Shown here piece by piece: positions 20,006 to 52,222 of a stretch of DNA of 52,349 bases (its first letter is position 1; each line of letters begins with the position of its first letter). The notes beneath the pieces were generated by a model. It was not told the origin of the DNA, did not search any database, and was given only the letters and a program-made list of their open reading frames with translations. This DNA comes from a virus (Duplodnaviria; Caudoviricetes). The translations under genes were made by a program, and so were the position numbers. The stretch spans positions 1-52,349 of the IMG/VR virus record IMGVR_UViG_3300025018_000018, one strand, 5' to 3'.

Positions 20006-20030
20006 AGAACTTTTGTTCTATATTATACCA
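20006..20030 (-). promoter_or_regulatory. Extended -10 promoter followed by a perfect LexA-type box
   Basis: Minus strand reads TGGTATAAT-AT-AGAAC-AAAA-GTTCT. Confidence 0.75.
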
Positions 20031-20033
20031 TAA

Positions 20034-20384
20034 CTACTTATTTGTTTTCGGATGCTTCTCTTTTACCGCATCACGCAGTCCGACGATGGTTGCAAATGAT
20101 TCAACAAAGGGTATCTTCTGGTTATCACAAATGGCAATCAATTGCTCTACAACCGCTTCCATAAATGCATCTGTACCGAATGCTTCGCGGTAATCAATCA
20201 TGCGCTGCACGCTAATGTCGGATGTGTCATAGCCTGCTTGCTGGTAAATATTCTTAAGTTGATCTTCTCTGGTGAGTGAGTTACTCACCAGAAATCGTTT
20301 ACCATCTAACTCCCATAGTGTTTGTAATTTAGATGGGTCGCTCCCATCTGTTCCACTTGCGGTAATGTCAATAATGATGTGCAT
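20034..20384 (-). CDS. Hypothetical protein (tail-fibre associated position)
   Basis: ORF coupled to the fibre gene. Confidence 0.65.
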   Translation of the reverse strand: MHIIIDITASGTDGSDPSKLQTLWELDGKRFLVSNSLTREDQLKNIYQQAGYDTSDISVQRMIDYREAFGTDAFMEAVVEQLIAICDNQKIPFVESFATIVGLRDAVKEKHPKTNK

Positions 20385-20385
20385 A

Positions 20386-22146
20386 CTATTGCTCCAAAAG
20401 TTCGATATTGGTTATTGCAATATAATAGTTTCCACCTGATCCAGCGGAAGTCACTGTACCTCGCAATGTATGTGTGCCGGTATAAGTCACTGTCACTGTG
20501 TTGTTGAATATGGTGTTAAATACATCCGCTGCTGCTGCATGGTGATTCTGACCTGTGACAACATCTACCCCGTCCAATGTCCATTTCATAACGCCTCTGT
20601 TTGAGCCTGCCACACATAGGACTCGCAAGGTATATGTGCCAGCCCGTAAAACGAATGTCTGCTCAAACGAATCAGCAGCCGCAGCAGTAAATTGATAGCT
20701 GTAAAACTGGTATGGCTGAGAGGCACTTAACGTCATAGCGACTGCATTACCGCTAACAATTGTGCTGTTTTTATGCCATAGCTGAACATAATTAGGTGCA
20801 ATCGTTAATTCGCGCCATACTGCTGCACCTGTACTGGCATCCAAACATTCATATTTCCTGCGCTGTGTCGTGTTCCACCAGGTACTCCCAACGCTATACC
20901 CCGCTGTATTGTCGTCTGATACAGTTGGATTTGTGGTCGTCTTGGTATCTTTCAACACCACCAGATTTGTGCCATTGGTATAAACACGCCCTGCTGTCCC
21001 TGTACCAATCGTGTCAATCTTTGCCTGTGGCACAGTCGGGAGATCATCAGCCACAAGCGCACGCAAGCTCACTGGACCCGTTGATCCATCAGGCGTTGCA
21101 AGCACATGGTTGGCAGTCAATCCAGATGTGGGGTTAATCGCCAATGTGCCTGATGCTGTAACAGGCGATCCAGATACCGTCATCCATCCGGCAGTCGTGG
21201 ATAAGCCTACACTCGTTACCGTGCCACCGCCCCCGCTACTTCCGATCTCTGTCCATACCGCTGCGCTTGCGCTGTTATCTACGCAGACAAACAAACCGTC
21301 GTCTGTTGTGTTCAGCCACCATGTCAGTCTTCCGTATCCGGCAGCAACATCGTCCCCAGTTGTGGGGTCAGTCGTTTTCACTACCAGTCTGTTGTCTGTA
21401 TTTACCAATTGACGTAGGTTGTAGATCAAGTCCTGCTGCGTGACTGCGGTTTGCCCGTTTGCAATTTGCCACACCGCGAACGGAATTGCCTGAGGCGACA
21501 GCGTGGAGATCAGCGGCTCAACATCATCAGCAAAAATCCAGTTTAGCAATTCAGATTTTTCGCTGCCCTGGACGACATCTACCGATCCATCCAGCGGATT
21601 GAGATACAACAGCACCAGACGCTTCTTGCTGGATGTCCCTGGAGCATAGGTTGAGAGGTCAACCGCATCTGATAAGGATGGCGACCAGAATTTTAATTCG
21701 CCCTCGTGCGTTAGATAGATCAATTGTGTGACTGCTACTTTTGTGCTGGGTGTGGTTGCAGTTCCGAGCGGATACGGTTTTAAAATATTAAGCTCTGCCA
21801 CTTGGTTGGTATACGGATTACCAATATTAAAATTACTAGTATCGTATCCACCTGCAATTGCTCCTGTGTGATCTGCACCCTTGATCGCAATTTCATCATC
21901 ATCGTCACGATGTAATCGTACCGCCGCACCTGGTGTAAACGGAAACCCTACACCAAATGGCGCGCGCACCTGAAATGGATCAGAGAATTGTGGATTGCCA
22001 GATTGATCTACTCCTGAGACAATTCGTACCCATACTGTGCCACCATCTGCCTTAATTGTTCCATCTGCCTTTCCTAGAAATGCTACGACCTTTTTGAGAT
22101 CCAGCTTATTTTCTAGGAATCGGCGGGCATCATAAATGCTATTCAT
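20386..22146 (-). CDS. Tail fibre / receptor-binding protein
   Basis: Two copies of TTxPTxxDDxxAGY...WWxNTT...CxDxSxxAAVW; GGGGTVTSVGL; beta-rich C-terminal domain. Confidence 0.8.
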   Translation of the reverse strand: MNSIYDARRFLENKLDLKKVVAFLGKADGTIKADGGTVWVRIVSGVDQSGNPQFSDPFQVRAPFGVGFPFTPGAAVRLHRDDDDEIAIKGADHTGAIAGGYDTSNFNIGNPYTNQVAELNILKPYPLGTATTPSTKVAVTQLIYLTHEGELKFWSPSLSDAVDLSTYAPGTSSKKRLVLLYLNPLDGSVDVVQGSEKSELLNWIFADDVEPLISTLSPQAIPFAVWQIANGQTAVTQQDLIYNLRQLVNTDNRLVVKTTDPTTGDDVAAGYGRLTWWLNTTDDGLFVCVDNSASAAVWTEIGSSGGGGTVTSVGLSTTAGWMTVSGSPVTASGTLAINPTSGLTANHVLATPDGSTGPVSLRALVADDLPTVPQAKIDTIGTGTAGRVYTNGTNLVVLKDTKTTTNPTVSDDNTAGYSVGSTWWNTTQRRKYECLDASTGAAVWRELTIAPNYVQLWHKNSTIVSGNAVAMTLSASQPYQFYSYQFTAAAADSFEQTFVLRAGTYTLRVLCVAGSNRGVMKWTLDGVDVVTGQNHHAAAADVFNTIFNNTVTVTYTGTHTLRGTVTSAGSGGNYYIAITNIELLEQ

Positions 22147-25100
22147 ACCATTCAAATCCTGTTAAACTCGCCGGTGCCGTTTTCTCTATAAATGTCAATG
22201 TTCCAGTTCCATCCCATGCGGCATACCACATAGATGATCCCTCAATCACCATTACATGATATATTCCAGAACTAACATATTTCATACGTGCATAGGTCGC
22301 GCTGTTTCCAATCTGTGTATTGAAGTTCCAGTTAGACCCACCATCAACTGTGTAGGCAACCTTCCGTACCCCGCCAAATGCCAGCACGCAAACATAATGC
22401 GTTTCAATTCCGCGTGCAACTGCGATGCAGTTTGCGCCTACTGAAACACCGTCACTCACACCATCGTTTGGTGTAATATCATTCGTTGTGCTGCCATCGT
22501 ATTGATAAAGCGTTGTAGAGGTCGCATACAGATACTTCAATGTGTCATCACCATAGGTTGCAACACATAGAGGCTCACCACTTCCTCCGCCTGTTGTATC
22601 TGAGTAGCTCCCTCCATCTGTTGCATCTCTTACAATGCTATTGGCAGATAGCAGAATGCGAGTAGTTGGAAATAGGACATCTGCGCCTGCCACATTCCCC
22701 GCAGCATTCGCCAAAACTGGTGAACCAAATAGTGCTGCCCCATCAATTGAATAGACAGTGACAATGTCACCGCTACTGGTGCCAATAGTCCAAGATGCCT
22801 TCGTTAAATAACAATAACTACCATCACTATCATTGACGTTTTGTGCTAATCCGCGCAGACGAATAGAAGTAACGCTGCTACTACCAGACCAATTAACGGT
22901 AATTGTTCCAGATGATGCTCCTGATGACTGAGTAGCGACAGTTGATCCATTAATCTGGATGTCTGCTGAGGTTGCCGGACCACGTGTAGATCTAAATGCA
23001 ATGGTTAGGCTAATCGCGCTCATAGTCTGTCCGCTAAATGTTTTAGTCAAGCGGAATCCAACTGAAGCATTAGAGGTTGCACTTGTGCCTTCGATACGGT
23101 CTTCAATTGCATTGTAGGTTGGTGTAGGCGCAGATGGGTATCCTGTAATACCCGTTTCTAGCGCATATGGTGATGGTATATCACCATCACCGCTATAGTA
23201 TGGATTGGTAATCCCCGCATTTGCTTCTCCATACGCATAGACTTTGTTTGTTTCATAGGTCGGGCGTAGCATAGAATATAATCCATCAAGCTCAGATTGG
23301 ATGTATGCCAATTGCCCCAATGCTTTTGTGCGATATACCCATGATAAATTATTACTACTATCCTGTTCCAACACATACACGTTTTTGCCAACTTTATCAA
23401 ACTTCGCATCTTTGATAGTCTCTGTAACTTGGCTTGGCGTAACATTATTGAATGTAGGTGTGTTGCTGAGATTGATGTCTTTGACCTCATATACGGCACC
23501 TGTAGACCATGCTAATCCATAATCACCACCCTGCTTACGCTGTTGATCGATGTTCTGTGGGTTGGGGTTGCTGGGGCTTGGATCGGTCGGCTTCACAATT
23601 GGTATGTCCAACGGATCAGGATTAGTCGGATCGGGCAAGAACACGTCCAGTGGTGGCGGGCTATAATCATAAGGTGGTGCCGTTGGCATTACCGGATTAG
23701 TTAAATCGGTTTGTGTCAGTGGGATTTGTGTTAATGTTTGATAACCATCTCCGGCTGTTTCGCGTGTAAACACTGCATCAACATACCGACCACCTGCATG
23801 ATCGTAGCTGACGCTAATGCTTGTTAACTGCCAATAGTCGCTCGTCGAGTAGCCGACCCCGCGAGGGTCTTGTGACGCAGGGATTGTCCAAGAATACCGA
23901 TCGCTCACAGACGGAATCAATTCATGATAACCGTCCAGCAACTGCACCGTCAGCGTCGTAAGCGGCTGCACCCGCGCAAAGTAATTCGCGCAGCGTCCGC
24001 CCAACTCAATAAACGATGAACCAATGTCCGTATTAGCGGTCAGAATTTGTCCGTTGAGCTGCTGCTGGAAATCGCCCTCCGTTGGTGTTACGGCGGGAGT
24101 AGCTGCGCGCAAACCTTGCACGTTATCATCTGCTGATCGGTATGTTCCTCCCCCTGCCAGTATCAGCCCAATAGTATTTTTAGGATCACGCGCAATATCA
24201 TAGATACTGCCATCAGTTGCATCTACATCGCTAAATCCCATGTCTAAAATTGTAGTAATGCTTATGCGGTTCGTTAGCATCCAGGTTTCGCGTGTGCTGC
24301 GGATGTCGCCCTGCGGTGCATGTTCCAGTCGTGCGTTGATTCGCTGTAATAGCACCCGCATGGTTTCCCCTACACTATTTTGCTCGATTGGGAAACCCTT
24401 GTAATTGTATGTATCTCCTGTGTCGTGCCAGTCTACAGAACAAATGTTCCCTAATGTGGTATGTTCTGAGAGATACCACCATGCAGCACGGACCGGAGTC
24501 ATTTTATTAATTTGACCCCATTCGCTGCTATCAACTGCGTTTAATACCTGTGTATTTGTTCCATTGAGATTGCTCAATTGTTGAGCGATCCCTTCCATTG
24601 AGAATTGCGTAGATGTCGCATACCCACCATTGATGATCGTGAGGCTGTTCTGCTCCTGGCGGAATCGTCCGACAAAGCGAATGTCATTGGTAAGTGCTGT
24701 CAGGTTAGATGGCGCGTATAGTGCAACGAAGGTGTTGTCTGCGATGTCATCCACACCATCAAACGCACTGATTTGCATACTCCATCCAGAGTCAATATCT
24801 CCTGTGATTTGTGCAGGGGTATAGGTGGTATCCACTACACTACTGTAGTCCGCAGGTATCACAAATACATGGAAGGTCATCCAGCTAGACCGCCCACCAT
24901 TGTCTGTGACTGTCAGACGGGGCATGTAATGCCCCGCGCTTGTATAGCGGAGTGTAACGTTCTGGCTCGACGATGTGCCTACCTGAAACGTGCCACCATC
25001 AGCATCCCATAGCCATGATGAGATACTCGCCCCATCTTCTATCGCAACGGCGTCAGGCGCGAACGCAAAGTCCGCATTTCCGCTGCTCAGCACACCTGCA

Positions 25101-25561: not shown

Positions 25562-25563
25562 GA

Positions 25564-32696: not shown

Positions 32697-35156
32697 TTAC
32701 ACGCCGATATTATACAGAATTGAGGCATCATCGTTGGATTGCGCGGTAAACGCAAACCGCACGGTTACCGTCAGTTGCCATGAGTCGTAGTAGCTCAGAT
32801 AATCGAAATTCGCAGCGATGCGACGACGATACCCGATATACCAAGACGGACGATGGACGATCAGCAGGCGACCCCGTTCAACAGCATTACCGCCACTGGT
32901 GATCTTGCCATCAGCATCCGCCAGATCAAGCTCATTCGAGATGAACACGGGAATGCCATCAATCACACCAATCTGTCCGTTCATGTTGGTGGCGCGATTG
33001 CCAGCCTTGTCCATTGTCAAGAATTCGTTCATGCCCAGGAGCTTTGCCTCAACCTCCGGATGGGTGATGATTGCTAGGTCAGATACATTCTGCTTGCTGC
33101 GATCCAGAAGGAACCGTGCCTTGCGGATGGCTGCCAGCGTTGGGGCTGCCCCGCTATGATCAGAGGCATTGGCACTCACTGTCACCAATGCGTGCTTAAT
33201 CAGCCCATTCATCGCAAAATACTTGCTAGGGGCAGCCGCGCTACCACCATCAAGGTTGATGTTGTTGCTTGTAGCGGTGTCGCCATTCAGCAGCACATTA
33301 TCAATGCTATTGAGGATGGCACGTTCAGCTTGTTGACGATACAACGGGATTGCGCCAGCAACCGCATCCTCTTCCAATTCGGATGCAATACCCACACGCA
33401 ATGCCAGCTTCTTAGCGGTCAATGTCACCTTTGCTGACCCAACCTTGCTATCTGGAATTGCAGAACCTGAACCAGATAATAACAACTGGTCTTCATTGGT
33501 TGTTTCGCTAACAAAGTATACAGAAGGATCGGTGCCTTCAACGGGCAGTTCATACGGATTGGTGGGCATTTCCATCACATTGAACAATGGGGCAACCACG
33601 TTATCCCGCCGCGCCTTACGCCAAATTTCTTCGCGCCAAGCAGTCGGGACATGCTCATCACCATAGCCGGACTGCGTGGGGTGGTTCAGTTCATTCGCCT
33701 TGACCGCGCCGGACTTAATTGCCCGTGCCAGATGGGTGAGTTGCGGATCGTAGGATTTACCCGCGCTCTGCGGATCGTCTACTTTATGAGCAAATGCCTG
33801 CCAGAAGCCATCCCCAAACGAGATGCCTTTACCGGATGACTGTTGCGCTTTGTTGAGTTCCGCTGCATAGCTAAAATCCTCAACATCCCAATGGTCGTAC
33901 CGCCGATCAACCATGCCAGTTACGCTTGTACCATTCCCGCTTTTCACGTTCGGGCGGCTGTATTCGGCGGGCTGCTGCTTTTCCCATGCTTCACGCTGAG
34001 AGGAGAACGCACCCTTGAGCGCGGATTCTGCCTGCTTCTGCGTCTCAGACCATTTCTTGAACAGCGCAAAGGTCTTCTGAGAAGCCTTCTCCGCCAGTTC
34101 TTCATAGTCCATCTTGTCGGGGTCTTCCGGCATGTTCTGCTTCATGTCGTCCACGACTTCTTCAGTCATGGCAGTAGCATCCGCCGGGGCAACACCGAGT
34201 TCCTTGAGTTGGTCGGCAACGATCTTGCTAATCATCGCCTGTAATTCTTCGGGTGTCATTTCTGCACTCTCCATCATTGTTGATTTGCTTACGTTAACCG
34301 CGTCTGTCGTCTCATCCTGCCCTGCTTCTATAGGCTCTTGGACAGCCTCTCTAAGCAGCAACTCATCAAACGATTTCTGCGAGTGGATTTTGGTTTCAAA
34401 TGGCATTGCAGGCGCAACGGTCAGCGACCCTTCCACCAATGCCCATTCCGCGATACGCCCATCGGGCAGTACCTTGACGCTGTGCGGGATTGCGCCGGAC
34501 GACCACCCAAGCCGACCATCCTTGACCAGCTTCATAATGGCTTCCGCATAGCGATTGCTCATGTCAATCTCCGCTTCGACCCATAGCCCGATGTCGTCCT
34601 GCTTGGCAGAGACGAATGTCCCGACGTTGTGGAACTTCGTACCTTCCTTGAAGCCGTGATTGTAGAGCGTCTTCAGCTTCAGCAAGCCATCTGGTATGTC
34701 GGTAAAGAACTCCGTTTCAGGCGTAAAATACTCACCTTCCAGATCTTTCTTGCTGGCATCGGAATACACCACCAGATACCCGCCCACGCGGTTGCCGCCT
34801 ACTGCCTTGACCGCGCTGCCGAAGTAATATTGTTTGGCATCCATCGCTACACTCTTTTCATCCGTGTTAATCCAGTCATAGCACGCCCAGAACCCTGGGC
34901 TGAACGGGTCTTTTTTCTCATCGCAACTGTGCCGCGTGATAAATGCCTCACGGCTCTCAGGGACATCGCGTTCCATCTGCTCGCCGGGTTGCCCGTAGTG
35001 GACGGTACGTTCATCATCCTGGTAGCGGACGGTGCGTTCGTACTTCTTATCATCCCGGCTGGATGGTCTGCGGCGGGTCGCCTGACACCGCACGCCGTTC
35101 AATTGGTAATCAAAAAAGTCTGCCTTGATAGCAGACTTATCTTGTGTATCGCTCAT
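32697..35156 (-). CDS. Fused HK97-type prohead protease / scaffold / major capsid protein with extra N-terminal domain
   Basis: Protease motifs DLEGEYFT, LYNHG, GLWVEAEI, GWSSGAIP; capsid motifs VTLTAKKLA, IASELEEDA, LLNGD, GQIGVIDGIPV. Confidence 0.92.
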   Translation of the reverse strand: MSDTQDKSAIKADFFDYQLNGVRCQATRRRPSSRDDKKYERTVRYQDDERTVHYGQPGEQMERDVPESREAFITRHSCDEKKDPFSPGFWACYDWINTDEKSVAMDAKQYYFGSAVKAVGGNRVGGYLVVYSDASKKDLEGEYFTPETEFFTDIPDGLLKLKTLYNHGFKEGTKFHNVGTFVSAKQDDIGLWVEAEIDMSNRYAEAIMKLVKDGRLGWSSGAIPHSVKVLPDGRIAEWALVEGSLTVAPAMPFETKIHSQKSFDELLLREAVQEPIEAGQDETTDAVNVSKSTMMESAEMTPEELQAMISKIVADQLKELGVAPADATAMTEEVVDDMKQNMPEDPDKMDYEELAEKASQKTFALFKKWSETQKQAESALKGAFSSQREAWEKQQPAEYSRPNVKSGNGTSVTGMVDRRYDHWDVEDFSYAAELNKAQQSSGKGISFGDGFWQAFAHKVDDPQSAGKSYDPQLTHLARAIKSGAVKANELNHPTQSGYGDEHVPTAWREEIWRKARRDNVVAPLFNVMEMPTNPYELPVEGTDPSVYFVSETTNEDQLLLSGSGSAIPDSKVGSAKVTLTAKKLALRVGIASELEEDAVAGAIPLYRQQAERAILNSIDNVLLNGDTATSNNINLDGGSAAAPSKYFAMNGLIKHALVTVSANASDHSGAAPTLAAIRKARFLLDRSKQNVSDLAIITHPEVEAKLLGMNEFLTMDKAGNRATNMNGQIGVIDGIPVFISNELDLADADGKITSGGNAVERGRLLIVHRPSWYIGYRRRIAANFDYLSYYDSWQLTVTVRFAFTAQSNDDASILYNIGV

Positions 35157-35165
35157 AGTCAACCC

Positions 35166-37790: not shown

Positions 37791-39224
37791 TCACCCCATG
37801 AAAAACTGAATGCGGGAAAGGTCGGCTGATACAATGCCATACCATGCCAGTGCGCGGGCTATTACAGTATCATCATGCGCGCCTGCTGCTGCTTGGTATT
37901 TCCATGCGCCTGTTACGCTTTGTACTGTTACAAATGAGTAAATCTCTTGTCTGCCAACCGGATCAGCAAGAAGCCGCAAACCGTTTTCATTCATACCTTG
38001 GTATAAACCTGCAATAAGCGGTGGCTTACTAATAGCTGTTGTTGTGAACGGAACTACACTGGTATTTTCTGATCCATGTTCACTGAGCGCATTCCACACA
38101 TACGATAGATCAACACCGCCGAGCGTGTTTGTTTCAATCACTAGCGATTGGACATTCCATTGCTTGCATCTTTGCGCTACCTCGCGCCAGATGTCATCCC
38201 AGGGGCGTTTGTTAACACGCATTAGGTCGACCTCAATACCATTGTCACGGTCCATAATGGATAGCACCGTAAAATCGTTGGATTGACCAAGGTCAAGTCC
38301 TGCCACATATACCCTGCCATCCTGCGGTGTTGCATCGCCTGGCGCAGTGAACACGTCTGCCAGATGTGGTATTGTTGAGAAGTACCCATCGCCAGATGTC
38401 AGGAAGCAGGTGCGCGGGTCCTCGGGATATTCCTGGATGAATAGCCTTGCGCCAAGCTCTTTGACCTTCTCACGTCGCCACTTGATTTGCTCCGGTGTTA
38501 GACCATATTTTGCAACAACCTGTTCTTCTTCGGATGTATATTCCAACCGTTCATCAGGCAGCAAAGGTGTGCGGTATTCCATGCTCCTAAACCAAGGGAA
38601 AAAGTGTAGAGTAAATGCACTATCTCCATCGAGGGCTTTCATGCATTCTTCGTAAAACCATCCCTGTGCGCCATTTGGCGTAGACTCAACTACCACCCAT
38701 TTAGGCGATCCAGCCTGAAGCGCAGATGCGATTAGCAATTCAGCTTCCTGCACAAATGCGGCTTCAGAGAAGTGGATGTGGGTAAATGTACCCGAACGTC
38801 CTGCATTTTTGTTGCCCGCCGTTTGGATAATCGAAAATGACTGAACAATAGGATATTCAGTCATCACTTCATTATCTGCCTTCTTGGTTGGTCTAAAATC
38901 CGTCGGCAGGTTGTTATAGAAAAACCGAGACATTGCCCGGAAGTATTTTGTGTTTGCATCGTCCTTGGTCAATGTCAGCGACCTAGACGGACGTGTCCAG
39001 CCGATTCTACACAAGTCACCCTGGATGCATGTGCTAAACCCTATTTGGCGCGGCTTCAATATAATGTCGCGGCTGGTGCGGCTTCTCATATATTCGCGCT
39101 GTTCTGGCTTGTATATGAGTGGTAATGTTGTCATCTCTTTGTTCTGGATTTTCAGAAATATACGCGCAAATAACTCAGGATCACGGACAACATCCCTGGG
39201 CGATGGGAGTATAGCATTTGTCAT
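37791..39224 (-). CDS. terL: Terminase large subunit
   Basis: LKPRQIGFST Walker A; HFSEAAF Walker B; VESTPNG; GLDLG and HDDTVIA nuclease motifs. Confidence 0.95.
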   Translation of the reverse strand: MTNAILPSPRDVVRDPELFARIFLKIQNKEMTTLPLIYKPEQREYMRSRTSRDIILKPRQIGFSTCIQGDLCRIGWTRPSRSLTLTKDDANTKYFRAMSRFFYNNLPTDFRPTKKADNEVMTEYPIVQSFSIIQTAGNKNAGRSGTFTHIHFSEAAFVQEAELLIASALQAGSPKWVVVESTPNGAQGWFYEECMKALDGDSAFTLHFFPWFRSMEYRTPLLPDERLEYTSEEEQVVAKYGLTPEQIKWRREKVKELGARLFIQEYPEDPRTCFLTSGDGYFSTIPHLADVFTAPGDATPQDGRVYVAGLDLGQSNDFTVLSIMDRDNGIEVDLMRVNKRPWDDIWREVAQRCKQWNVQSLVIETNTLGGVDLSYVWNALSEHGSENTSVVPFTTTAISKPPLIAGLYQGMNENGLRLLADPVGRQEIYSFVTVQSVTGAWKYQAAAGAHDDTVIARALAWYGIVSADLSRIQFFMG

Positions 39225-39295: not shown

Positions 39296-39595
39296 TCAAA
39301 TGTGCTGTTCAAACACCATCACCTTCTCATCGCCTACCGTATCCAGCATGGATTGATACTTCTCAATCTCATCCGGCGTTAGCTTTCGCTCATCAACTTG
39401 GGCATACATGCGTTGTAGATCACCCCGCCATTCCACCATCACCACCCGGAAGCGTACCTTATGCCAGTCACACTGCACACCTGTCGGTGTATTCATCTTG
39501 GGATACACCACATCATAGACCGTGCCAATGGGCAATTCTGAGGATGAACGCCCATCCGTGTGCAGATAGAACAATCCATACCTATACAGAATCAT
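39296..39595 (-). CDS. Hypothetical protein
   Basis: ATGA-coupled to the upstream ORF. Confidence 0.65.
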   Translation of the reverse strand: MILYRYGLFYLHTDGRSSSELPIGTVYDVVYPKMNTPTGVQCDWHKVRFRVVMVEWRGDLQRMYAQVDERKLTPDEIEKYQSMLDTVGDEKVMVFEQHI

Positions 39596-40023
39596 CGCGC
39601 GGATGCTGTAGTATATACAGGTGATAAACTCTGCGTATAGGTATACGCTACGCGACTTGGTGTAGGTTTAGGCTGGATCAATCGCAAATCAGCCTCATCG
39701 AACGCTTTGGGATCGTCTGCAATCTCCGAACAAATACCTTCCACCACCAGATCAATTTCCTCAAGAATCGACATCACACGATACATAGATAGGCTATAGT
39801 TGGCTGAGATTGCAGCGGCACGTTGGCGAAGTGGAACGCCCCGTCGTTTCAAGTCCTCATTAGCACGATCAATACGACGTTCTAGCGGCGATAATGCCGC
39901 GCGAAACGTGTTTGACATCCGCGCACGATGATTCCAGTGGCGCAGTCCCCCGCGCCACTCGGCAGGCTTATAAAACAGGTTCTTATCGTATGGCTCGTAG
40001 CTTTCTGCCTCTGGTGTCATCAT
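39592..40023 (-). CDS. Hypothetical protein, possibly DNA-binding
   Basis: Own promoter with LexA-type box; RQRAAAISANYSLSMYRVMSIL resembles an HTH. Confidence 0.65.
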   Translation of the reverse strand: MMTPEAESYEPYDKNLFYKPAEWRGGLRHWNHRARMSNTFRAALSPLERRIDRANEDLKRRGVPLRQRAAAISANYSLSMYRVMSILEEIDLVVEGICSEIADDPKAFDEADLRLIQPKPTPSRVAYTYTQSLSPVYTTASAR

Positions 40024-40038: not shown

Positions 40039-40060
40039 AAACATTTGTTCTATTATACCA
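40039..40060 (-). promoter_or_regulatory. Extended -10 promoter plus LexA-type box
   Basis: Minus strand reads TGGTATAAT-AGAAC-AAAT-GTTT. Confidence 0.7.
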
Positions 40061-40096: not shown

Positions 40097-40138
40097 CTTC
40101 GCACTGCTATTTTTTTGACTCACATATCCAAAAAAGTG

Positions 40139-40212
40139 CCCCCAGGGCAGGAGTCGAACCTGCTACCTCAGCGTTGATTTAACGCTGCGCTCTACCGTTG
40201 AGCTACCCGTGG
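40139..40212 (-). tRNA. tRNA-like gene with non-canonical 9-nt anticodon loop (isotype undetermined)
   Basis: CCACGGG-TA-GCTC-AACGGTA-GAGC-G-CAGCG-TTAAATCAA-CGCTG-AGGTA-GCAGG-TTCGACT-CCTGC-CCTGGGG-G; no encoded CCA. Confidence 0.8.
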
Positions 40213-40303: not shown

Positions 40304-40317
40304 AGCACGTATGTTCT
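40304..40317. promoter_or_regulatory. LexA-type box upstream of the tRNA-like transcript
   Basis: AGCAC-GTAT-GTTCT (1 mismatch); TATAGT -10 on - at 40287-40282. Confidence 0.55.
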
Positions 40318-40323: not shown

Positions 40324-40887
40324 TCAAATATCATCCTCATCCATCATTGCAGGTAAGATGATACTCTCCCATGCAATCTTCTCTCCACCACTGGTTACAT
40401 CCGTCCGGTCCGTCGGCTCACCAAACGTCAACCGCGCTTCCTTCATGATGACACCAAAGCCCAGCATAAACTCCTTGAAGCCCTTCAGGTCGATCTTATC
40501 GGGTTCATGTTTAGCCTGCTCACCCATTGTATTGATAATGCGCCCTGCGATGCCTTGAAGGGCTTGCAGGCTCGTCCACATAATCTCTCGTGCCTTTGCC
40601 ACCTCATTCGCACGTCGGGCATCTGCTTCCTTTACCCTTAACTGACGCTCGTGTTCATCCCAGGCGTGCGCCCGTGTTTCCCATTGGTAATCAATGATAC
40701 GCTGAGTCCATGACCCAGGCGTGGATTTTGGCTGCTTAAACTCATGCCCCTGTTGCGCTGCCCTATCCCGCTTCTCTTGGGTATACACGCCCAGGAAGGA
40801 ACGATTAATCCCCATCAGGCGATAGCGTTCAAACCGATCCCACCATTTGTTATCTTCCTCTGGAAGACGTTCCCATAACTCAGCCAT
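40324..40887 (-). CDS. terS: Terminase small subunit
   Basis: WERLPEE...RFERYRLMG...WETRAHAWD family pattern; DVTSGGEKI C-terminal motif. Confidence 0.75.
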   Translation of the reverse strand: MAELWERLPEEDNKWWDRFERYRLMGINRSFLGVYTQEKRDRAAQQGHEFKQPKSTPGSWTQRIIDYQWETRAHAWDEHERQLRVKEADARRANEVAKAREIMWTSLQALQGIAGRIINTMGEQAKHEPDKIDLKGFKEFMLGFGVIMKEARLTFGEPTDRTDVTSGGEKIAWESIILPAMMDEDDI

Positions 40888-40958
40888 TGTCCACCCTCTT
40901 GACATCTAACCCCTCATCCACCATGCGCTGAAGGATGAAAAATCTAATTCGTTTTATA

Positions 40959-40981
40959 TAACATTTGTTCTAATTATACAG
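40959..40981 (-). promoter_or_regulatory. -10 element plus LexA-type box upstream of terS
   Basis: Minus strand reads TATAAT-T-AGAAC-AAAT-GTTA. Confidence 0.65.
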
Positions 40982-42081: not shown

Positions 42082-42124
42082 TTGCATATATTCACCTAAT
42101 CGTATACAATTAAACGTATACGTT
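42082..42124 (+). promoter_or_regulatory. Promoter with two GTATAC operators
   Basis: TTGCAT-17 bp-TACAAT; AATCGTATAC and palindromic AACGTATACGTT. Confidence 0.75.
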
Positions 42125-42147
42125 AAACATACTTAAGGGTTAGGCTC

Positions 42148-43266: not shown

Positions 43267-44001
43267 CTACAACTCATCCCGCAACTTACGCAATTCCTCG
43301 ATCTGATCGTCAATCAACTGCCGCACCTGCGCTTTCTCATGCGCCTGCAATTGCTTACTTTTCCGTGTGAAATTGCGATATTTCAGCCGACTTTTAATCA
43401 AAAACATCTCAAACTTGCCCGCTTCCCCCGGTAGGGCAGGGGGCTTTCCATGTTTTAGGTAATATTGAAACTTATCGACGCTGGTAAGATTTAGATCAAT
43501 GGCAGCTTGGATCAATTTTCGCTGATCATCCTCAGAATATGGAGCTAGCAACTTATGGTGAGAGAAAGTCAATTTATCGGTGCGCACCGATAAATTGACT
43601 TGTCGTGCTACATATGCCATATCATTAATTGTGGTCACGCTGTATCCGGTTAAGTCCGCCAGCTCATCGTATTTCTTGCCCCAAAAATCTGCACCATAAA
43701 GGGCAAGGTCTGCAATGATCCACTGAATAGCGCGGTTGACTTGCTCCGTGTGGCGGAACATCGTCAGCCACTCGTCCTCATCAAGCCCTTCCAGTACTTG
43801 CACAATGCCAACGTCGCTCAAGACAAAATGTCCGATGTGTGTATGCCCGTTTTCATCTGTACGGAATGGAGCAATACCATTTTTGCGCGTGGGCAGCTTC
43901 AACCCAAACGCTTGGGTAATATCCGGCACGATGGCAGATGATCTATTATCCCCATTCTCCAACGCATCCATAAATTTACTGCGGCTGTCGTCTTTTGCCA
44001 T
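43267..44001 (-). CDS. LmbU-family-like HTH DNA-binding protein (candidate ParA partner)
   Basis: QWIIADLALYG...YDELADLTGYSVTTINDMAYVARQV...KLTFSHHKLLA matches the LmbU pattern; TAATG-coupled to parA. Confidence 0.7.
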   Translation of the reverse strand: MAKDDSRSKFMDALENGDNRSSAIVPDITQAFGLKLPTRKNGIAPFRTDENGHTHIGHFVLSDVGIVQVLEGLDEDEWLTMFRHTEQVNRAIQWIIADLALYGADFWGKKYDELADLTGYSVTTINDMAYVARQVNLSVRTDKLTFSHHKLLAPYSEDDQRKLIQAAIDLNLTSVDKFQYYLKHGKPPALPGEAGKFEMFLIKSRLKYRNFTRKSKQLQAHEKAQVRQLIDDQIEELRKLRDEL

Positions 44002-44816
44002 TAGGCTACCTCACCCGCTTGAATTTTTTCCAGGATGTTATCAACGATTGGTTGTAGCTCGGCTACTGCCACCTTCGCTTGACGACGCTCAGAATAATCT
44101 TTCGTGTTGGCACGCTTATAGATGCTACGCTGTAATTGTGATGCCTGCACCCATGCGGTTAATGAACGCATAGGATTGAATACATTTAAGTGATCATACT
44201 TACCACACAGCCACCCATAATTGACCTGTTGCACCTTCTGGCTTGCGTCAAACTGATTTGGCACGATGCCTAGAATTTTGGCTGTTGATAGCCCTTGAGA
44301 TTCTGCCTGTTTACCAATCTGCTGCAAGTACCCCATTGTTGTTCCCAAACTTCGCACGCTGTCCGGCTGTGTTAGCGTTGGTAGCAAAATATAATCAGAT
44401 GCAAAATACAATCCAGCATGGATGTTCGTCAGTCCTGGCGATGTGTCCACCAGAATAACATCAAATGCTGGACGCAGATTATCCAAATGTTCCATCAAAA
44501 GAGAAGGCGTGTCAGTATGTGATTCAACTTGAATTTGACCATCACTGGATGGCAATAACGCCATCACCGCATTTTTGTCACCTGTGAACTCATGATCCAC
44601 TGGCAGCAATACGTCCTGATAATCCGCGCCATGCAGCATCATTGCCAGTAGTCCATCTGTGCGCGGATGACGTAAACCAGTAGTAGCATTACCCTGCCCA
44701 TCTGCGTCGATGACCAACACTCTAGCACCTGCACGTGCCAGCCCTGCTCCCAAATTAATTGTAATCGTTGTTTTACCAACGCCACCTTTACGCCCCATCA
44801 CTGAAATAACTTTCAT
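44001..44816 (-). CDS. parA: ParA/Soj family partition ATPase
   Basis: KGGVGKTT deviant Walker A; VLVIDADGQGNAT; DVILVDTSP; ILGIVPN. Confidence 0.95.
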   Translation of the reverse strand: MKVISVMGRKGGVGKTTITINLGAGLARAGARVLVIDADGQGNATTGLRHPRTDGLLAMMLHGADYQDVLLPVDHEFTGDKNAVMALLPSSDGQIQVESHTDTPSLLMEHLDNLRPAFDVILVDTSPGLTNIHAGLYFASDYILLPTLTQPDSVRSLGTTMGYLQQIGKQAESQGLSTAKILGIVPNQFDASQKVQQVNYGWLCGKYDHLNVFNPMRSLTAWVQASQLQRSIYKRANTKDYSERRQAKVAVAELQPIVDNILEKIQAGEVA

Positions 44817-44880
44817 GAGTCTTGTCTCCCTTTGTTTTGGTATATAATATGATCGAAACAGGCTGGTCTCCCTGCCTGGC

Positions 44881-44914
44881 AAAACCCGCCCTCGGATCAG
44901 GGCGTTTTTTGTTT
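44881..44914. terminator. Hairpin terminator separating par genes from the upstream operon
   Basis: CGCCCT-CGGATC-AGGGCG flanked by A- and T-runs. Confidence 0.6.
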
Positions 44915-46693: not shown

Positions 46694-46708
46694 CCACCCA
46701 TCCCTTCT

Positions 46709-46722
46709 GGAACAATTGTTCC
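46709..46722. promoter_or_regulatory. Perfect LexA-type box
   Basis: GGAAC-AATT-GTTCC in the gap upstream of 46693(-). Confidence 0.55.
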
Positions 46723-46750
46723 GTCCAACTCGTGCAAATTTTGCACAGGT

Positions 46751-46927
46751 TCAATCTTCTTTTGACTGTTGACGCAACCATTCGACATGCGCCTGCACTG
46801 CTTCTTCCGTCGTCTGCACATCCGTGTGATGCGTAAACCCGCAATCATGACATGAATTGATACAGTCCATCAGATCACGGTAAATCATCATACTGCCGCA
46901 CGCCGGACACGCCATGTAATCATCCAT
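46751..46927 (-). CDS. Small zinc-ribbon protein (58 aa, not in the ORF track)
   Basis: MDDYMACPACGS...SCHDCGF...QSKED-stop, translated by hand. Confidence 0.7.
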   Translation of the reverse strand: MDDYMACPACGSMMIYRDLMDCINSCHDCGFTHHTDVQTTEEAVQAHVEWLRQQSKED

Positions 46928-47183
46928 GGAAGAAAATACCTTTTATCACATCTTCCGGCGTGCCATCTGCCAAATGATCTGCAAATGTTCTAGGCTCTCC
47001 TGTCAGAAGATACCCATAGCTAACATCGTATATCACCATCATTTTTTCTTGAACAAATGACTCTGGGGTGCGATCCCCATTCTCAATATGTGCAAGCCTG
47101 CGCTGTTCGATTCCAATTAATTTTGCCGCCTGTGATTGGGAAAGACCTGCGCCTTCTCTGGCACGTGTAAACTGATTCTTCAT
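46920..47183 (-). CDS. XRE-family HTH regulator
   Basis: AREGAGLSQSQAAKLIGIEQRRLAHIENGDRTP...YDVSYGYLLTG. Confidence 0.9.
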   Translation of the reverse strand: MKNQFTRAREGAGLSQSQAAKLIGIEQRRLAHIENGDRTPESFVQEKMMVIYDVSYGYLLTGEPRTFADHLADGTPEDVIKGIFFHG

Positions 47184-47186
47184 TGT

Positions 47187-47576
47187 CTAATCCTCATCTT
47201 TCCACAGCGTACTAATATCATGTGTTTCACCATCGAGAACCTGTCCCCAGGATTTTGCAAAACTAATAATAGTAGGATTATCCCAAAACGGCTCCGTCAT
47301 CAGATCAAACGCCTCATGTTTCACCTCGGCTTTGACCGTAACACCCGCTTTCTCGCCACCAAGCCGCCGGATTTTCGCCTTACTCTTACCGCTTTTGGTA
47401 CGGCGATCCAGCCACGCCCGACAATCCTCAAATGGATCGTCCAGGCGTGCATCCAGCTTGGTAATCCAGTCCTTCGCCTTTGGATGATCTACGCCGCGCA
47501 GGAGTTGACGCGCCTCTCTGTATCGCTTCTGTTGGATAAGCTCACGCGCCCGTGCCATCTTGCTATCGTCAGACAT
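47187..47576 (-). CDS. Hypothetical protein
   Basis: RBS AGGAG; N-terminal helical hairpin ARELIQQKRYREARQLL. Confidence 0.7.
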   Translation of the reverse strand: MSDDSKMARARELIQQKRYREARQLLRGVDHPKAKDWITKLDARLDDPFEDCRAWLDRRTKSGKSKAKIRRLGGEKAGVTVKAEVKHEAFDLMTEPFWDNPTIISFAKSWGQVLDGETHDISTLWKDED

Positions 47577-47603
47577 AGTTTATACTCCTATAGAAATTAC
47601 TCT

Positions 47604-47634
47604 ATTCTAGTTTGCAGTTTAGAACAATCGTGCT
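47604..47634 (-). promoter_or_regulatory. Promoter with LexA-type box
   Basis: AGAAC-AATC-GTGCT at 47621-47634; TAGAAT -10 on - at 47609-47604. Confidence 0.6.
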
Positions 47635-47664
47635 ACATTTTATATAACAAAATTGAAATACGGG

Positions 47665-47910
47665 TTATTGCTCGATGCTATCCAAATACAGCAGGTCACT
47701 AATATCACATGGAACCCAGTTGCATAGCGCAACAATCACATCACTATGCACGTGCTTAATCTCGTTCGCAGGTGACATCCAAGTACCAACCGTGTTAGGA
47801 GATAAGCCTGTTGCCTGTGCAATCTCCCTATTGGTAATGTTCCGTTTTTCGTTCATCCCCTTCTGGGCAACCAGGATTTGTAATGCTGATCTGACGACAG
47901 TTTTACTCAT
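47665..47910 (-). CDS. Cro/C1-type HTH regulator (no peptidase domain)
   Basis: ITNREIAQATGLSPNTVGTWM...ALCNWVPCDISDLL. Confidence 0.85.
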   Translation of the reverse strand: MSKTVVRSALQILVAQKGMNEKRNITNREIAQATGLSPNTVGTWMSPANEIKHVHSDVIVALCNWVPCDISDLLYLDSIEQ

Positions 47911-47920
47911 CAGGTATCGC

Positions 47921-48139
47921 CTAATGCTTTGTGTCAGTTTCATCTTCATCAGTTGGATACACCTTCTTAATATCTTCCAACCGATCCATCAAATCTGGGC
48001 GATACCGTTTGAAAAGCTCTGCAAGCGCGTCGTTATCACTTACAGACTTGCCCGTTTCCATCTGGATTTCACCCGCGAATATGCGTACCAACCGACGAGT
48101 ATCTTCACTGGTTCTCATATACACGTTCTTTTCTCCCAT
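47921..48139 (-). CDS. Small putative DNA-binding protein (ribbon-helix-helix-like)
   Basis: KNVYMRTSEDTRRLVR...SDNDALAELF; RBS AGGAG. Confidence 0.55.
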   Translation of the reverse strand: MGEKNVYMRTSEDTRRLVRIFAGEIQMETGKSVSDNDALAELFKRYRPDLMDRLEDIKKVYPTDEDETDTKH

Positions 48140-48283
48140 ATTTATATCTCCTATTTATTATATCAAATGTTTGGTTTGACAAAATGTTTTCATATGCTAT
48201 ACTGTTAGATGTGTATAAGAAAATCACATTGTCGCCTCTTTATAAATAATAACACATAAAGAGCAGCACATTAACAACCGCAT

Positions 48284-48395
48284 TTCCGGCGCGTATGCCA
48301 AACATACCGATCCGCTAAGAACGGATAATCGCCCGCCGGAAGCCTCCATCAATTCCCCCTCACCGGAACCGTGGAGGGGGCTAGGGGGTGGGGGC
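48284..48395 (+). ncRNA. Candidate structured leader RNA
   Basis: TTCCGGCG/CGCCGGAA stem enclosing GTATG/CATAC and ATCCG/CGGAT hairpins; a second long GC hairpin follows. Confidence 0.45.
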
Positions 48396-48426
48396 ATCTA
48401 AAAAACTAATCACTCAGGATTTAACG

Positions 48427-48948: not shown

Positions 48949-49027
48949 TAGGTATTCCGTAGGACAAACGTTATTGAAACTATTAACCGGAAACGTTAGA
49001 ATGTAGTTTGTCCTGATGGTATAGCAC

Positions 49028-49055
49028 GTACAAACGTTCTAAATTGTTATACAAT
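49028..49055 (+). promoter_or_regulatory. LexA-type box plus -10 element
   Basis: GTAC-AAAC-GTTCT (1 mismatch); TACAAT at 49050-49055. Confidence 0.55.
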
Positions 49056-49074
49056 TGTTACGTAGGAGGAACGG

Positions 49075-49527
49075 ATGAACATACCAACAACCGGACCCGC
49101 GCTCAATCGCATGATGACACAGCATGGCATCCCGCCTGCAACCGCCATCACGAAGAAACGCGGCACATCACAGTTCACAATCGAATACACGAAATTTAAT
49201 CTCGCCGGGCACGCAGATGCACAGCATCAAACACCCGCCGCTGAGGATATTGCAGAAAAGTTGAAGCGCGCCTTCAATGGTGTGCAGATTATCGACACAC
49301 AGAATTATAAGGCTCACTGGATCGCAGATGCTCCGCGTTTTGGGACGCTCGTCCAGGTGGGGTGGGGCAACAACGATGCGGTAGCAGGACAATCGGTAAA
49401 CGTTTACCAGACAGACCCGATTGCCCCGCCGATCACGCCGCGCGCAAAGGAAGTGATGGTGAAGCCTAGCTTTCCCATCATGACCGCCCCATGTAGAGCA
49501 ATCATTCCATTTGTGCCACAGAAATAA
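49075..49527 (+). CDS. Hypothetical protein
   Basis: RBS AGGAGG. Confidence 0.75.
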   Translation: MNIPTTGPALNRMMTQHGIPPATAITKKRGTSQFTIEYTKFNLAGHADAQHQTPAAEDIAEKLKRAFNGVQIIDTQNYKAHWIADAPRFGTLVQVGWGNNDAVAGQSVNVYQTDPIAPPITPRAKEVMVKPSFPIMTAPCRAIIPFVPQK

Positions 49528-49550
49528 AAAAAGCCCTCGCGATAGGGCTT
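49526..49550. terminator. Hairpin terminator (T-run on - strand)
   Basis: AAGCCCT-CGCGAT-AGGGCTT. Confidence 0.55.
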
Positions 49551-49601
49551 AAGGGTGGCTGGAATGTTTTGTCTCTATGCCGCCCTTGAGGAGATACTAA
49601 C

Positions 49602-49763
49602 ATGAATCAGAAAGTTTTACAAGCTAACTTTTCGCAATTAGCCGAATTGGGCTATATGCGCTATCCAAAACGCCGCAGCGGTGGTCGTAGCAGCATCCGG
49701 CAATCGTTAAAGAAATACGCGGCGGAATTAAACCGCAAACGAGGAGTCCGCCATGTCAACTGA
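49602..49763 (+). CDS. Small basic protein (53 aa, not in the ORF track)
   Basis: RBS GAGGAG; MNQKVLQANFSQLAELGYMRYPKRRSGGRSS..., translated by hand. Confidence 0.6.
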   Translation: MNQKVLQANFSQLAELGYMRYPKRRSGGRSSIRQSLKKYAAELNRKRGVRHVN

Positions 49764-51123: not shown

Positions 51124-51179
51124 AAAGCGATCCAGTCTCTGTCCACTCAGATGGACGGGGCGAGTTTCATAACCATCTC

Positions 51180-51485
51180 ATGCAAGTTAAGAAATTGGAT
51201 GTTGGCAAAAATGGTAACAACGCCAAACACTGGATCGCTAAAGGAACAGAGATGGAATATGTCAATCTATACGTTGAAGACTACAACGCCGCCAAACGTG
51301 CCGGATACGATGTCCGCCAGTGGGATTATCCCGATCCGCAGCTTGACTATGATCTGTACCTTTTGCTTCGGCACAATCACGGGTTGATCCGCGTCGAAGC
51401 AATCATGAAACCTGATGGCACATATGAGCCGGTCCTGCGTCGGGAAGATGTAAGACGACAAGTTGAGAAAGAGATGAAGAAATGA
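51180..51485 (+). CDS. Hypothetical protein
   Basis: ORF coupled to the next gene; start uncertain. Confidence 0.6.
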   Translation: MQVKKLDVGKNGNNAKHWIAKGTEMEYVNLYVEDYNAAKRAGYDVRQWDYPDPQLDYDLYLLLRHNHGLIRVEAIMKPDGTYEPVLRREDVRRQVEKEMKK

Positions 51486-52033
51486 CAGATTTATCAACCA
51501 TTCAGAATGAACTCGCCGCCGCGCTCCAAGAAGCAGAGCAGGCGAAGGCAGAATTTAACACCATTGAAACAGCCTACCAAGAGCAGCGCGAAGCCGCCCT
51601 GAAGGCATGGGAAGCCGCCAACTCGGAACTCGTCGCCAAGCGCGAAGCTGCTAAGGCGAAGGCTGACGAAGCAAACGAAAGCGCATCCAGCAAGCGCGAA
51701 GCGGCAAAGGAAGCACTCATCGAACACTGGGAATCCAATCCCGAAGACAAGAAGCCTGTCGATGGCTTCTCCCTGCGACTGGACAAGGACATCAACTTGG
51801 ATGCTTTGAGAATCAATGAAATTATTGCAGCAGGGGCGACCTTCCTTCTCAAAGTGGACGAGAAGGTGGCAAAGACCTTTATTGCCGATAACGCCGAGCA
51901 ACTAGCGGATAATTGGGTTATCAAGCCGCATCTGCGCTCCTGGATGCCATCCTTAGCGAACGCTATCAGCACCAAGCACACGCCCATGATTAGCGATGCA
52001 AAGCTGTTAAATATAAGTGTTGGCGAAGGTTAA
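51482..52033 (+). CDS. Coiled-coil protein, Gam/gp157-like
   Basis: Ala/Glu-rich N-terminal coiled coil then FLLKVDEK; sits next to the recombinase. Confidence 0.5.
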   Translation: MTDLSTIQNELAAALQEAEQAKAEFNTIETAYQEQREAALKAWEAANSELVAKREAAKAKADEANESASSKREAAKEALIEHWESNPEDKKPVDGFSLRLDKDINLDALRINEIIAAGATFLLKVDEKVAKTFIADNAEQLADNWVIKPHLRSWMPSLANAISTKHTPMISDAKLLNISVGEG

Positions 52034-52036
52034 TAT

Positions 52037-52064
52037 TTGCACAACTAGGGTGTTGTGCTATACT
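52037..52064 (+). promoter_or_regulatory. Predicted rep promoter overlapped by a palindrome
   Basis: TTGCAC-16 bp-TATACT with TG extension; GCACAAC-TAGGGT-GTTGTGC. Confidence 0.7.
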
Positions 52065-52079
52065 CTGAAAACGTCGCAT

Positions 52080-52156
52080 AAAGCAAAAGCCACCGGGGAA
52101 AACGGTGGCAGCGGCTAAATGTACGGTTTTCGGGGTGTGGGAACACCCTACGGGAT
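52080..52156 (-). ncRNA. Predicted antisense counter-transcript (about 75 nt) in the rep leader
   Basis: Minus-strand TTGACA(52191-52186)-17 bp-TAGTAT(52168-52163); terminator GCCACCG-N7-CGGTGGC-TTTTGCTTT. Confidence 0.6.
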
Positions 52157-52206
52157 GCCCTTATACTACCGTGTAAGGTTAGATGTGTCAATATACTCAT
52201 CTGATT

Positions 52207-52222
52207 TGGAACAATTGTTCCA
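52207..52222. promoter_or_regulatory. Perfect LexA-type box 27 bp upstream of the rep start codon
   Basis: TGGAAC-AATT-GTTCCA. Confidence 0.65.

Follow-up and report, generated by a model that had tools for sequence, protein, structure and literature searches.

Which protein recognizes the GAAC-N4-GTTC palindromes that recur in the genome of a large tailed phage, and what would it switch? The question is posed by IMG/VR virus record IMGVR_UViG_3300025018_000018 (Duplodnaviria; Caudoviricetes), whose entire 52,349 bp we analyzed and refer to as the window. An earlier note on this DNA had read eight such boxes as operators of host LexA, wired individually to replication, packaging and release genes in a switch that dispenses with a dedicated phage repressor. 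In the portions of two published accounts that deal with the operator, the Gram-positive LexA consensus is CGAACRNRYGTTYC and the Cheo box is GAACN4GTTC, with GTTY tolerated in one arm (PMC2248561, PMC9578287).

Here, we map the boxes, relate them to predicted promoters and to the regulators encoded by the phage, and weigh the candidate binders. From their non-random, intergenic and promoter-linked distribution we conclude that the GAAC-N4-GTTC elements are real operator sites, and we put at about 0.5 the probability that host LexA gates the late promoters through them as one layer of control.

GAAC boxes are concentrated between genes

Across the window, perfect GAAC-N4-GTTC occurs six times against 0.62 expected (0/100 shuffles reach 6), and boxes with at most one mismatch occur 30 times against 17.4 expected (0/100 shuffles reach 30). 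Eight of these 30 fall into the 2853 intergenic bases that make up 5.4% of the genome (binomial p = 1.5e-4), and dinucleotide-shuffled intergenic segments contain a mean of 0.70, with 0/1000 shuffles reaching eight. The intergenic enrichment presupposed by the earlier note is thus borne out, as are the boxes that it listed, three of them perfect (20007, 46710 and 52209) and five with one mismatch (40039, 40305, 40959, 47622 and 49028). All eight are intergenic on the gene map, although 52209 qualifies only with the start of the replication initiator gene rep set to the position-27 ATG (= 52249) instead of 52183. The other three perfect boxes (978, 6794 and 24438) are located within open reading frames (ORFs).

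The enrichment does not extend to the gamma-proteobacterial LexA box CTGT-N8-ACAG, whose 16 copies in the window against 17.3 expected led us to reject it as the operator. Rfam places no known RNA family over the boxes.

Four class A boxes overlap predicted late promoters

The boxes split into two classes, A and B (Table 1). Class A has the form (T)AGAAC-AAAw-GTTn, in which the TAGAAC arm is invariant (6/6 sites), the spacer is AT-rich and the second arm is degenerate (GTTC, GTTT, GTTA, GTGC, GTGC and GTAC). Its core, AT-rich spacer and degenerate distal arm (GTTC/GTTT/GTTA) fit both the CGAACRNRYGTTYC consensus and the Cheo box. A longer string, TAGAACAAATGTT, is identical at 40039 and 40959.

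Promoter overlap is seen at four of these boxes (20007, 40039, 40959 and 40305), the promoters being consensus predictions. At the first three the -10 element is preceded by TG(G/T), giving an extended -10 with no clear -35, and the box covers the expected start point. The TATAAT-N-AGAAC layout occurs exactly three times in the window (20015-20027, 40047-40057 and 40967-40978, all on the minus strand), in agreement with the earlier description of three late promoters with a common TATAAT-N1-3-box arrangement. The gap between TATAAT and the box is 1 nucleotide (nt) at 40039, 2 at 40959 and 3 at 20007, and such variable spacing argues against a fixed promoter element. Two of the boxes end 15 nt before a start codon: box 20007 (-10 at 20022-20027, preceded by TGG) before ATG 19991 of a three-gene terminal cassette, and box 40039 before ATG 40023 of an operon comprising 39592-40023, 39296-39595 and the large terminase gene (37791-39224). 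The box at 40305 takes up the 17-nt gap that separates TTGACA (40327-40322) from TATTCT (40304-40299). Because class A boxes lie either 1-3 nt after an extended -10 or in the -35/-10 spacer, a bound dimeric repressor would block RNA polymerase, and the variable distance from the -10 together with the spacer position at 40305 gives the box the look of an independent repressor site rather than of an element read by the polymerase.

The box at 47622 is a probable member of the class, with an AT-rich, -10-like stretch preceding it on the minus strand and a promoter assignment that is tentative. The box at 49028, ~20-30 nt downstream of a TTGAAA-17-TAGAAT promoter (48974-49002), may belong to another operator family, since AACGTTA half sites lie around it, and over the box itself no promoter is recognized. 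The earlier designation of the boxes as LexA-type agrees with the Cheo/LexA design in core and position and is ambiguous at 49028. Three further positions (2856, 21715 and 39291) carry ATAGATCAA(A/T)TGT and score highly on the class A weight matrix, with GATC replacing GAAC; these may be weak variant sites or chance matches.

An invariant 14-mer forms class B

Class B consists of a single 14-mer, GGAACAATTGTTCC, identical at 46709, 52208 and 6793, where only 0.24 matches are expected at two or fewer mismatches. Its flanks are G/C, not A/T, and variants with two mismatches lie in ORFs at 977-990 (in the rep gene) and 24437-24450. The two classes agree at 10 of 12 core positions, and the class A weight matrix ranks 52206 among its top ten sites. 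No recognizable sigma-70-type promoter lies over 46709, 52208 or 6793. The claim that boxes mark the rep, terminase, tRNA and lysis-position promoters therefore survives for the terminase, the tRNA and the terminal cassette and is not supported for rep (52209), nor does 46710 lie on a recognizable promoter.

The site in the rep leader follows a promoter at 52036-52064; relative to a minus-strand promoter (52191 to 52163), it is located 16 nt upstream of the -35. This minus-strand unit, antisense to the leader at 52089-52191, reads TTGACA-17-TAGTAT with a strong terminator-like hairpin ~55-100 nt downstream (terminator 52109 to 52089); it is a candidate source of a copy-control antisense RNA and has no Rfam match. 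The class B site at 46709 is followed by another palindrome, GTGCAAATTTTGCAC, at 46732.

The same promoter layout recurs in other viral contigs

Searching IMG/VR for TATAAT-N0-3-AGAACAAATGTT, we matched 98 stretches, of which 80 were read and yielded the 62 distinct contexts that are counted here. The base after the pattern completes GTTC in 36 of the 62 (T in 13, A in 7, G in 6), the median G+C is 37%, and a second box with at most one mismatch lies within 45 nt upstream in 13, often in the promoter spacer. In a mirror-image control, 75 stretches gave 21 contexts, with the mirrored C in 2/21. When 27 of 42 downstream ORFs were scanned, seven proved to belong to one small unknown family (phrog_6785), and others included a DNA polymerase, an ImmA-like protease, a late sigma factor (contig L204) and a portal protein (contig L230). 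In L230, tandem Cheo-type boxes stand on either side of a TATAAT at ~8130-8190, 25 nt upstream of the portal gene, and a comparable site precedes the late sigma factor gene of L204, also from IMG/VR.

We take it from these contigs that such boxes occur directly before late or structural genes. The collection suggests that promoters built from a -10 element and a Cheo box over the start point are widespread among phages, standing also before a portal gene and a late sigma factor gene. An operator design common to unrelated elements is the signature of a host factor, and it is what the 62 contexts display; with operator and position common to dozens of unrelated viral contigs, the pattern points to a conserved host factor.

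A metagenome-assembled genome (MAG) labelled Gammaproteobacteria, G002, which holds a large-terminase relative of 44% identity, contains 56 boxes in total against 54 in the control, and 11 of 14 perfect boxes inspected in it, apart from three described below, lie within ORFs. We found no LexA domain and no true RecA in this MAG, whose sole S24 protein is a 312-amino-acid (aa) CI-like repressor with no box nearby. One of its contigs (G002:C24, L167) is phage-like, unrelated to the window, and carries three perfect boxes (1868-1903 and 2518-2529), two flanking a TTGTCA-16-TATTAT promoter and one overlapping the TTGACA promoter of a cro-like gene. They adjoin a 156-aa helix-turn-helix (HTH) regulator that is barely similar to the HTH proteins of the window (E = 0.13 and 0.01). 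The arrangement is compatible both with a common host factor and with a phage repressor family.

The phage encodes its own regulators and operators

The phage appears to run several regulons with operators of its own. As the earlier note had observed, its HTH regulators are short (87, 94 and 125 aa), and Peptidase_S24 was not found in six frames of the window. A search of six frames for the LexA DNA-binding domain (PF01726) was likewise negative, although diverged homologues could escape it, and the annotation scans of the window revealed no phage sigma factor or RNA polymerase. The 87-aa HTH_3 protein, encoded in an operon with a 129-aa protein and a zinc-ribbon protein, is the main phage-encoded candidate for binding the GAAC boxes.

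Intergenic DNA contains at least three other repeated palindromic operator families, which lie on early and middle promoters. Each promoter of the AACTAACGTTAGTT family bears a pair of copies, the first in the -35/-10 spacer and the second ~30 nt downstream, and half sites lie at 48967 and 48992. For the ATCGTATAC/ACGTATACGT family, the product of the HTH_26 gene at 2527-2904, which adjoins the divergent region, is the likely binder. The TGCAAAwTTTGCA family comprises 7-1-7 palindromes that closely follow stop codons. The strongest early promoter, TTGACA-16-TATACT at 48176-48203, has in common with the rep leader a 10-mer, TTAGATGTGT, present in two exact copies, and has no GAAC box; an extended -10 promoter at 13235 is also without one. 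The notion of a switch that lacks a dedicated repressor is contradicted by these additional operator families, the three HTH regulators and the box-free early promoter.

Genome layout, lifestyle and host

The record carries a 127-bp direct terminal repeat, with an estimated completeness of 100%, and the map is therefore circular or permuted. A rightward block (27-17,673) includes the DnaD-like initiator, DnaB, two or three DNA methyltransferases and RNase H. The leftward block runs from 40,905 to 17,932 through the small-terminase-like gene, the tRNA, two small genes, the large terminase and the portal, and in its later part through an 821-aa protease/capsid fusion, tail genes and a three-gene membrane-protein cassette that ends at a terminator. 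Between 41 and 52 kb lie an exonuclease operon, a leftward operon ending in ParA and ParB-like genes, the three short HTH regulators and a divergent early promoter region.

Several of these features deserve a description. The gene that had been called tRNA-like is a real tRNA by both ARAGORN and Rfam, and its anticodon in the ARAGORN reading is unusual for bacteria. The terminal cassette occupies the position expected of a lysis module, and no endolysin was recognized in it. Its first protein (258 aa) is a coiled-coil protein with a hydrophobic C-terminal tail, its second (158 aa) has two transmembrane-like segments and its third (286 aa) has a lipoprotein-like signal. The 821-aa protein (32697-35162), with a head-maturation-protease-like part at residues 163-347 and a major capsid part at about 261-772, looks like the product of a fused protease/scaffold/capsid gene. 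Within the DnaD-like initiator gene, two overlapping copies of TGTGTCAAAATGACACA at 427-465 form nested inverted repeats and are a candidate replication origin or set of initiator binding sites. The ParB-like gene contains a gapless, perfect 36-bp palindrome with 18-nt arms (43566-43601), a candidate partition centromere; chromosomal parS sits inside spo0J. By comparison with this palindrome, class B was set back as a candidate parS.

A tyrosine integrase (PF00589) had no match in six frames of the window, in a search that was not specifically directed at serine recombinases or protelomerases. With a partition cassette and regulators, and without a PF00589 integrase, in a complete genome, the phage probably lives as a plasmid prophage.

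The phage is very distant from anything in the isolate-phage collection, where a megablast of 24 kb returned no match. An IMG/VR search with the small-terminase protein also gave none. The best tblastn hits, sought among isolate phages for the large terminase and among plasmids for ParA, reached at most 29-33% identity and came from mixed hosts. Profile searches of IMG/VR, JGI metagenomes and GTDB genomes retrieved loci with identities of at most 48% for the large terminase, 34% for DnaB and 34% for the ParB-like protein. These distant loci had no regulatory region or box pattern in common with the window, and the single box near the terminase gene of contig L085 sits within an ORF. Protein records contain closer relatives, 92% identical for the large terminase, 63% for DnaB and 64% for the ParB-like protein.

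Six of the 120 best DnaB relatives are named, all of them MAGs, five being Chloroflexota/Anaerolineae/Phototrophicaceae and one 'bacterium'. The ParB-like protein is 58% identical to a 'Chloroflexi bacterium' MAG protein, and of the RNase H clusters, one among the nearest three consists mostly of Chloroflexota. Together these relatives hint at a Chloroflexota host. Chloroflexi reportedly use a GAAC-N4-GTTC LexA box, as is said of Dehalococcoides in the Journal of Bacteriology in 2002. Our literature search found no description of a Chloroflexi LexA box, and none occurs in PMC8565304.

Table 1. Boxes, genes and other operator families of the window, with coordinates.
Feature	Coordinates	Strand	Description
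Class A box	20007..20018	-	TATAAT-AT-AGAACAAAAGTTCT; perfect 14-bp palindrome
Class A box	40039..40050	-	TGGTATAAT-AGAACAAATGTTT; -10 at 40052-40057
Class A box	40305..40316	-	TAGAACATACGTGCTA; in tRNA-gene promoter
Class A box	40959..40970	-	CTGTATAAT-T-AGAACAAATGTTA; -10 at 40973-40978; upstream of small-terminase-like gene 40324-40905
Class A box, probable	47622..47633	+	TTAGAACAATCGTGCTA; between HTH_26 gene 47665-47949 and leftward operon 47187-47576 / 46920-47183 / 46751-46927
One-mismatch box	49028..49039	-	TAGAACGTTTGTAC; upstream of gene 49075-49527
Class B site	46709..46722		20 nt upstream of ATG 46693, first gene of leftward operon with ParA/ParB-like end
Class B site	52208..52221		in rep leader, 27 nt upstream of rep ATG (52249 = position 27)
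Class B site	6793..6806		within ORF 5659-7158
DnaD-like replication initiator (rep)	27..1082	+	downstream of class B site 52208 via 127-bp terminal repeat
Small-terminase-like gene	40324-40905	leftward	
Large terminase	37791-39224	leftward	operon with 39592-40023 and 39296-39595
tRNA gene	40138..40212	-	ARAGORN: Ile, anticodon AAT; Rfam tRNA, 49.5 bits
Three-gene terminal cassette	17932..19991	-	downstream of box 20007; followed by terminator 17933-17911
ParA	44001-44882	leftward	PHROGs E = 2.7e-41
ParB-like gene	43267-44001	leftward	LmbU-family E = 3.6e-14, below cut-off; ParB HTH E = 0.033
HTH_3 (XRE-type) regulator, 87 aa	46920..47183	-	weak RstR-family match, E = 7.8e-7, below family cut-off
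HTH_26 regulator, 94 aa	47665..47949	-	leftward arm of divergent early region 48140-48426
129-aa protein	47187-47576	leftward	first gene of HTH_3 operon 47576-46751
Zinc-ribbon protein, 58 aa	46751-46927	leftward	last gene of HTH_3 operon
Operator family AACTAACGTTAGTT	14360-14412, 17104-17156		promoters before 14428 and 17169
Operator family ATCGTATAC/ACGTATACGT	2908-2925, 4448-4468, 42097-42125		promoters before 2940/2904, 4507 and 42148
TGCAAAwTTTGCA family	14239-14253, 46732-46746		ATGCAAAATTTGCAT and GTGCAAATTTTGCAC, respectively

Candidate binders of the GAAC boxes

In the reading that we prefer, a dimeric repressor would cover the transcription starts of the late genes and of one regulatory operon until induction removed it. 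Its targets would be the four leftward 'late' promoters, those of the small-terminase-like gene, the tRNA, the large-terminase operon and the terminal membrane-protein cassette, with the promoter of the small regulatory operon 47576-46751 as a further probable target. We infer that the most likely binder is the LexA of a host with a Gram-positive/Chloroflexota-type SOS box. DNA damage would then lead, through RecA-stimulated self-cleavage of LexA, to licensed transcription of the late genes and the regulator in a prophage maintained as a ParA/ParB plasmid. LexA would form a single layer within a larger switch, with other, phage-specific operators on the early and middle promoters. The same protein would also occupy the class B 14-mers, as high-affinity sites located in leaders or within genes.

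A number of observations weigh against this assignment. Each class is tight, with flanks that do not vary (TAGAAC in 6/6 class A sites, all 14 positions in 3/3 class B sites), and such uniformity suits a phage-specific operator better than a host regulon. Of the 16 half sites in the eight intergenic boxes, 11 have A as flanking base, 4 have G and 1 has the C found in the Bacillota consensus. In five of six class A sites only one arm is imperfect, always the one opposite TAGAAC. Three perfect boxes lie within ORFs, the class B sites lie off recognizable promoters, and the main early promoter carries no box. Boxes bracket the HTH_3 operon, 47622 upstream and 46709 downstream, which is the usual signature of an autoregulated phage repressor. 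The nearest structural relative in a genome (large terminase, 44%) belongs to a MAG labelled Gammaproteobacteria. Finally, LexA on structural genes leaves the turn-on of late genes after a damage-free infection unexplained.

Much of this would be accommodated by a tentative but serious alternative, that the GAAC family is bound by a repressor of the phage itself, most plausibly the 87-aa HTH_3 protein or else the 94-aa HTH_26 protein, and that the match to the LexA box is coincidental. In the plasmid-prophage state such a repressor would shut the late promoters, its own operon and the other targets. The phage does encode three HTH regulators, and the GAAC family is one of at least three or four intergenic palindromic operator families, the others of which look phage-specific. 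The bracketing of the HTH_3 operon would follow naturally, as would conservation far beyond the 8-bp core (TAGAACAAATGTT in two copies, the 14-mer in three) and an imperfect arm whose side never changes. Half sites of the GTTCT type can be read by XRE-type proteins, SinR among them, and on the unrelated contig G002:C24 three perfect boxes lie over promoters beside the contig's own HTH regulator. A phage repressor would, however, have had to arrive by chance at the LexA core, the AT-rich spacer and the position after the -10, a design that recurs in the 62 contexts. No S24 domain or other induction handle was found on any regulator of the phage, and that barely similar HTH proteins stand beside the same box in the window and in G002:C24 fits a shared host factor better.

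It is unlikely, by our estimate, that the two classes answer to different binders, class A being a promoter operator and GGAACAATTGTTCC a dispersed site that serves as partition centromere or as a roadblock or copy-control element; the idea overlaps with both host LexA and a phage repressor as binder of class A. The N15 centromere consists of scattered sites, and class B, identical at 14/14 bp with flanks unlike those of class A, is found off recognizable promoters and once inside a gene. One copy heads the operon that ends in the ParA/ParB-like genes, and another sits in the rep leader by the candidate antisense promoter and terminator. As a centromere, the 36-bp palindrome is much the better candidate, and a core common to both classes at 10 of 12 positions, with 52206 in the top ten of the class A matrix, would be improbable for unrelated binders. 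We consider it highly improbable that the box is instead an element of the late promoter or initial transcript, read by RNA polymerase, a phage activator or an antiterminator. About 22 nt, TG(G/T)TATAAT...TAGAACAAAwGTT, are common to the three late promoters, which have no clear -35, and the conserved arm always lies beside the -10. Such an element would be hard to reconcile with a TATAAT-GAAC distance of 1, 2 or 3 nt, with boxes in a -35/-10 spacer (40305) and away from promoters, and with the box-free extended -10 promoter at 13235; a phage sigma factor or polymerase and an Rfam match were sought in the window and not found.

If LexA does bind, structural, tRNA and lysis-position promoters would each be gated separately by the host repressor, and the direct SOS control of late genes known from the small Bacillus tectivirus GIL01 would extend to a large tailed phage-plasmid in a poorly studied phylum, with a bearing on the induction of prophages in uncultured Chloroflexota. 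The new element would be the combination, in a phage-plasmid probably of Chloroflexota, of four or five separate LexA-gated late or regulatory promoters with three identical off-promoter sites. In its fullest form the proposal holds that a tailed Chloroflexota plasmid prophage hands late control to LexA unit by unit, from the small-terminase gene and the tRNA to the large-terminase/head operon and the membrane/lysis cassette, and uses the three off-promoter sites as high-affinity LexA roadblocks or sinks, thereby coupling both replication and partition to the SOS state; this version we regard as doubtful, and if true it would be an SOS wiring of a caudovirus not described so far. Should a phage protein bind instead, the system would be an ordinary multi-operator phage circuit whose operator mimics the LexA box.

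Comparison with known systems

As an operator, the box resembles Cheo and other Gram-positive LexA sites in its 8-bp palindromic core, its 4-nt AT-rich spacer, the GTTY tolerated in one arm and its position over the -10/start point or in the promoter spacer. It differs in its flanks, A or G and not C, in two GTGC arms and one GTAC arm, and in the three 14-mers off promoters.

The closest regulatory parallel is GIL01, a Bacillus thuringiensis tectivirus in which, according to the part of the report that treats its promoters, LexA and gp7 repress the promoters P1 (early) and P3 (late) alike and there is no dedicated repressor (PMC6182141). The earlier note was wrong to list GIL01 among phages with LexA at an antirepressor or a single promoter, and LexA on early and late phage promoters is, as a general idea, not new on that published evidence (PMC6182141). 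Like GIL01, the phage described here would be an extrachromosomal prophage without an integrase, has Cheo-type boxes on the replication side and on late (virion/lysis) promoters, and encodes no RecA-cleavable repressor that we could find. Unlike the 15-kb tectivirus, it is tailed and 52 kb long, encodes ParA, a ParB-like protein and no fewer than three HTH regulators, and carries other operator families; six-frame searches with PF01726, which diverged homologues could escape, found no counterpart of the LexA-like gp6. Its boxes lie on four or five separate promoters and not on the main early promoter, with LexA binding predicted. A lysogeny that relies on LexA without dedicated repressor or operators, as in GIL01, is at odds with its three HTH regulators and other operators.

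In phage P1, the non-cleavable repressor C1 acts through distributed operators in a plasmid prophage; these operators are unlike the host LexA box, and the late genes are under an activator. The phage described here resembles P1 in its probable plasmid-prophage state with a partition system, in the many dispersed operator copies on separate operons and in a partly asymmetric site, and differs in the likeness of its operators to the LexA box, with no C1 homology seen. In 186 (Tum), N15 (AntC) and CTXphi (RstR/LexA), one LexA site triggers a phage repressor cascade. Box 47622 is similarly placed, before a small immunity-region operon that encodes an RstR-like HTH protein (a weak match), and unlike those phages the window carries the box on its late promoters as well.

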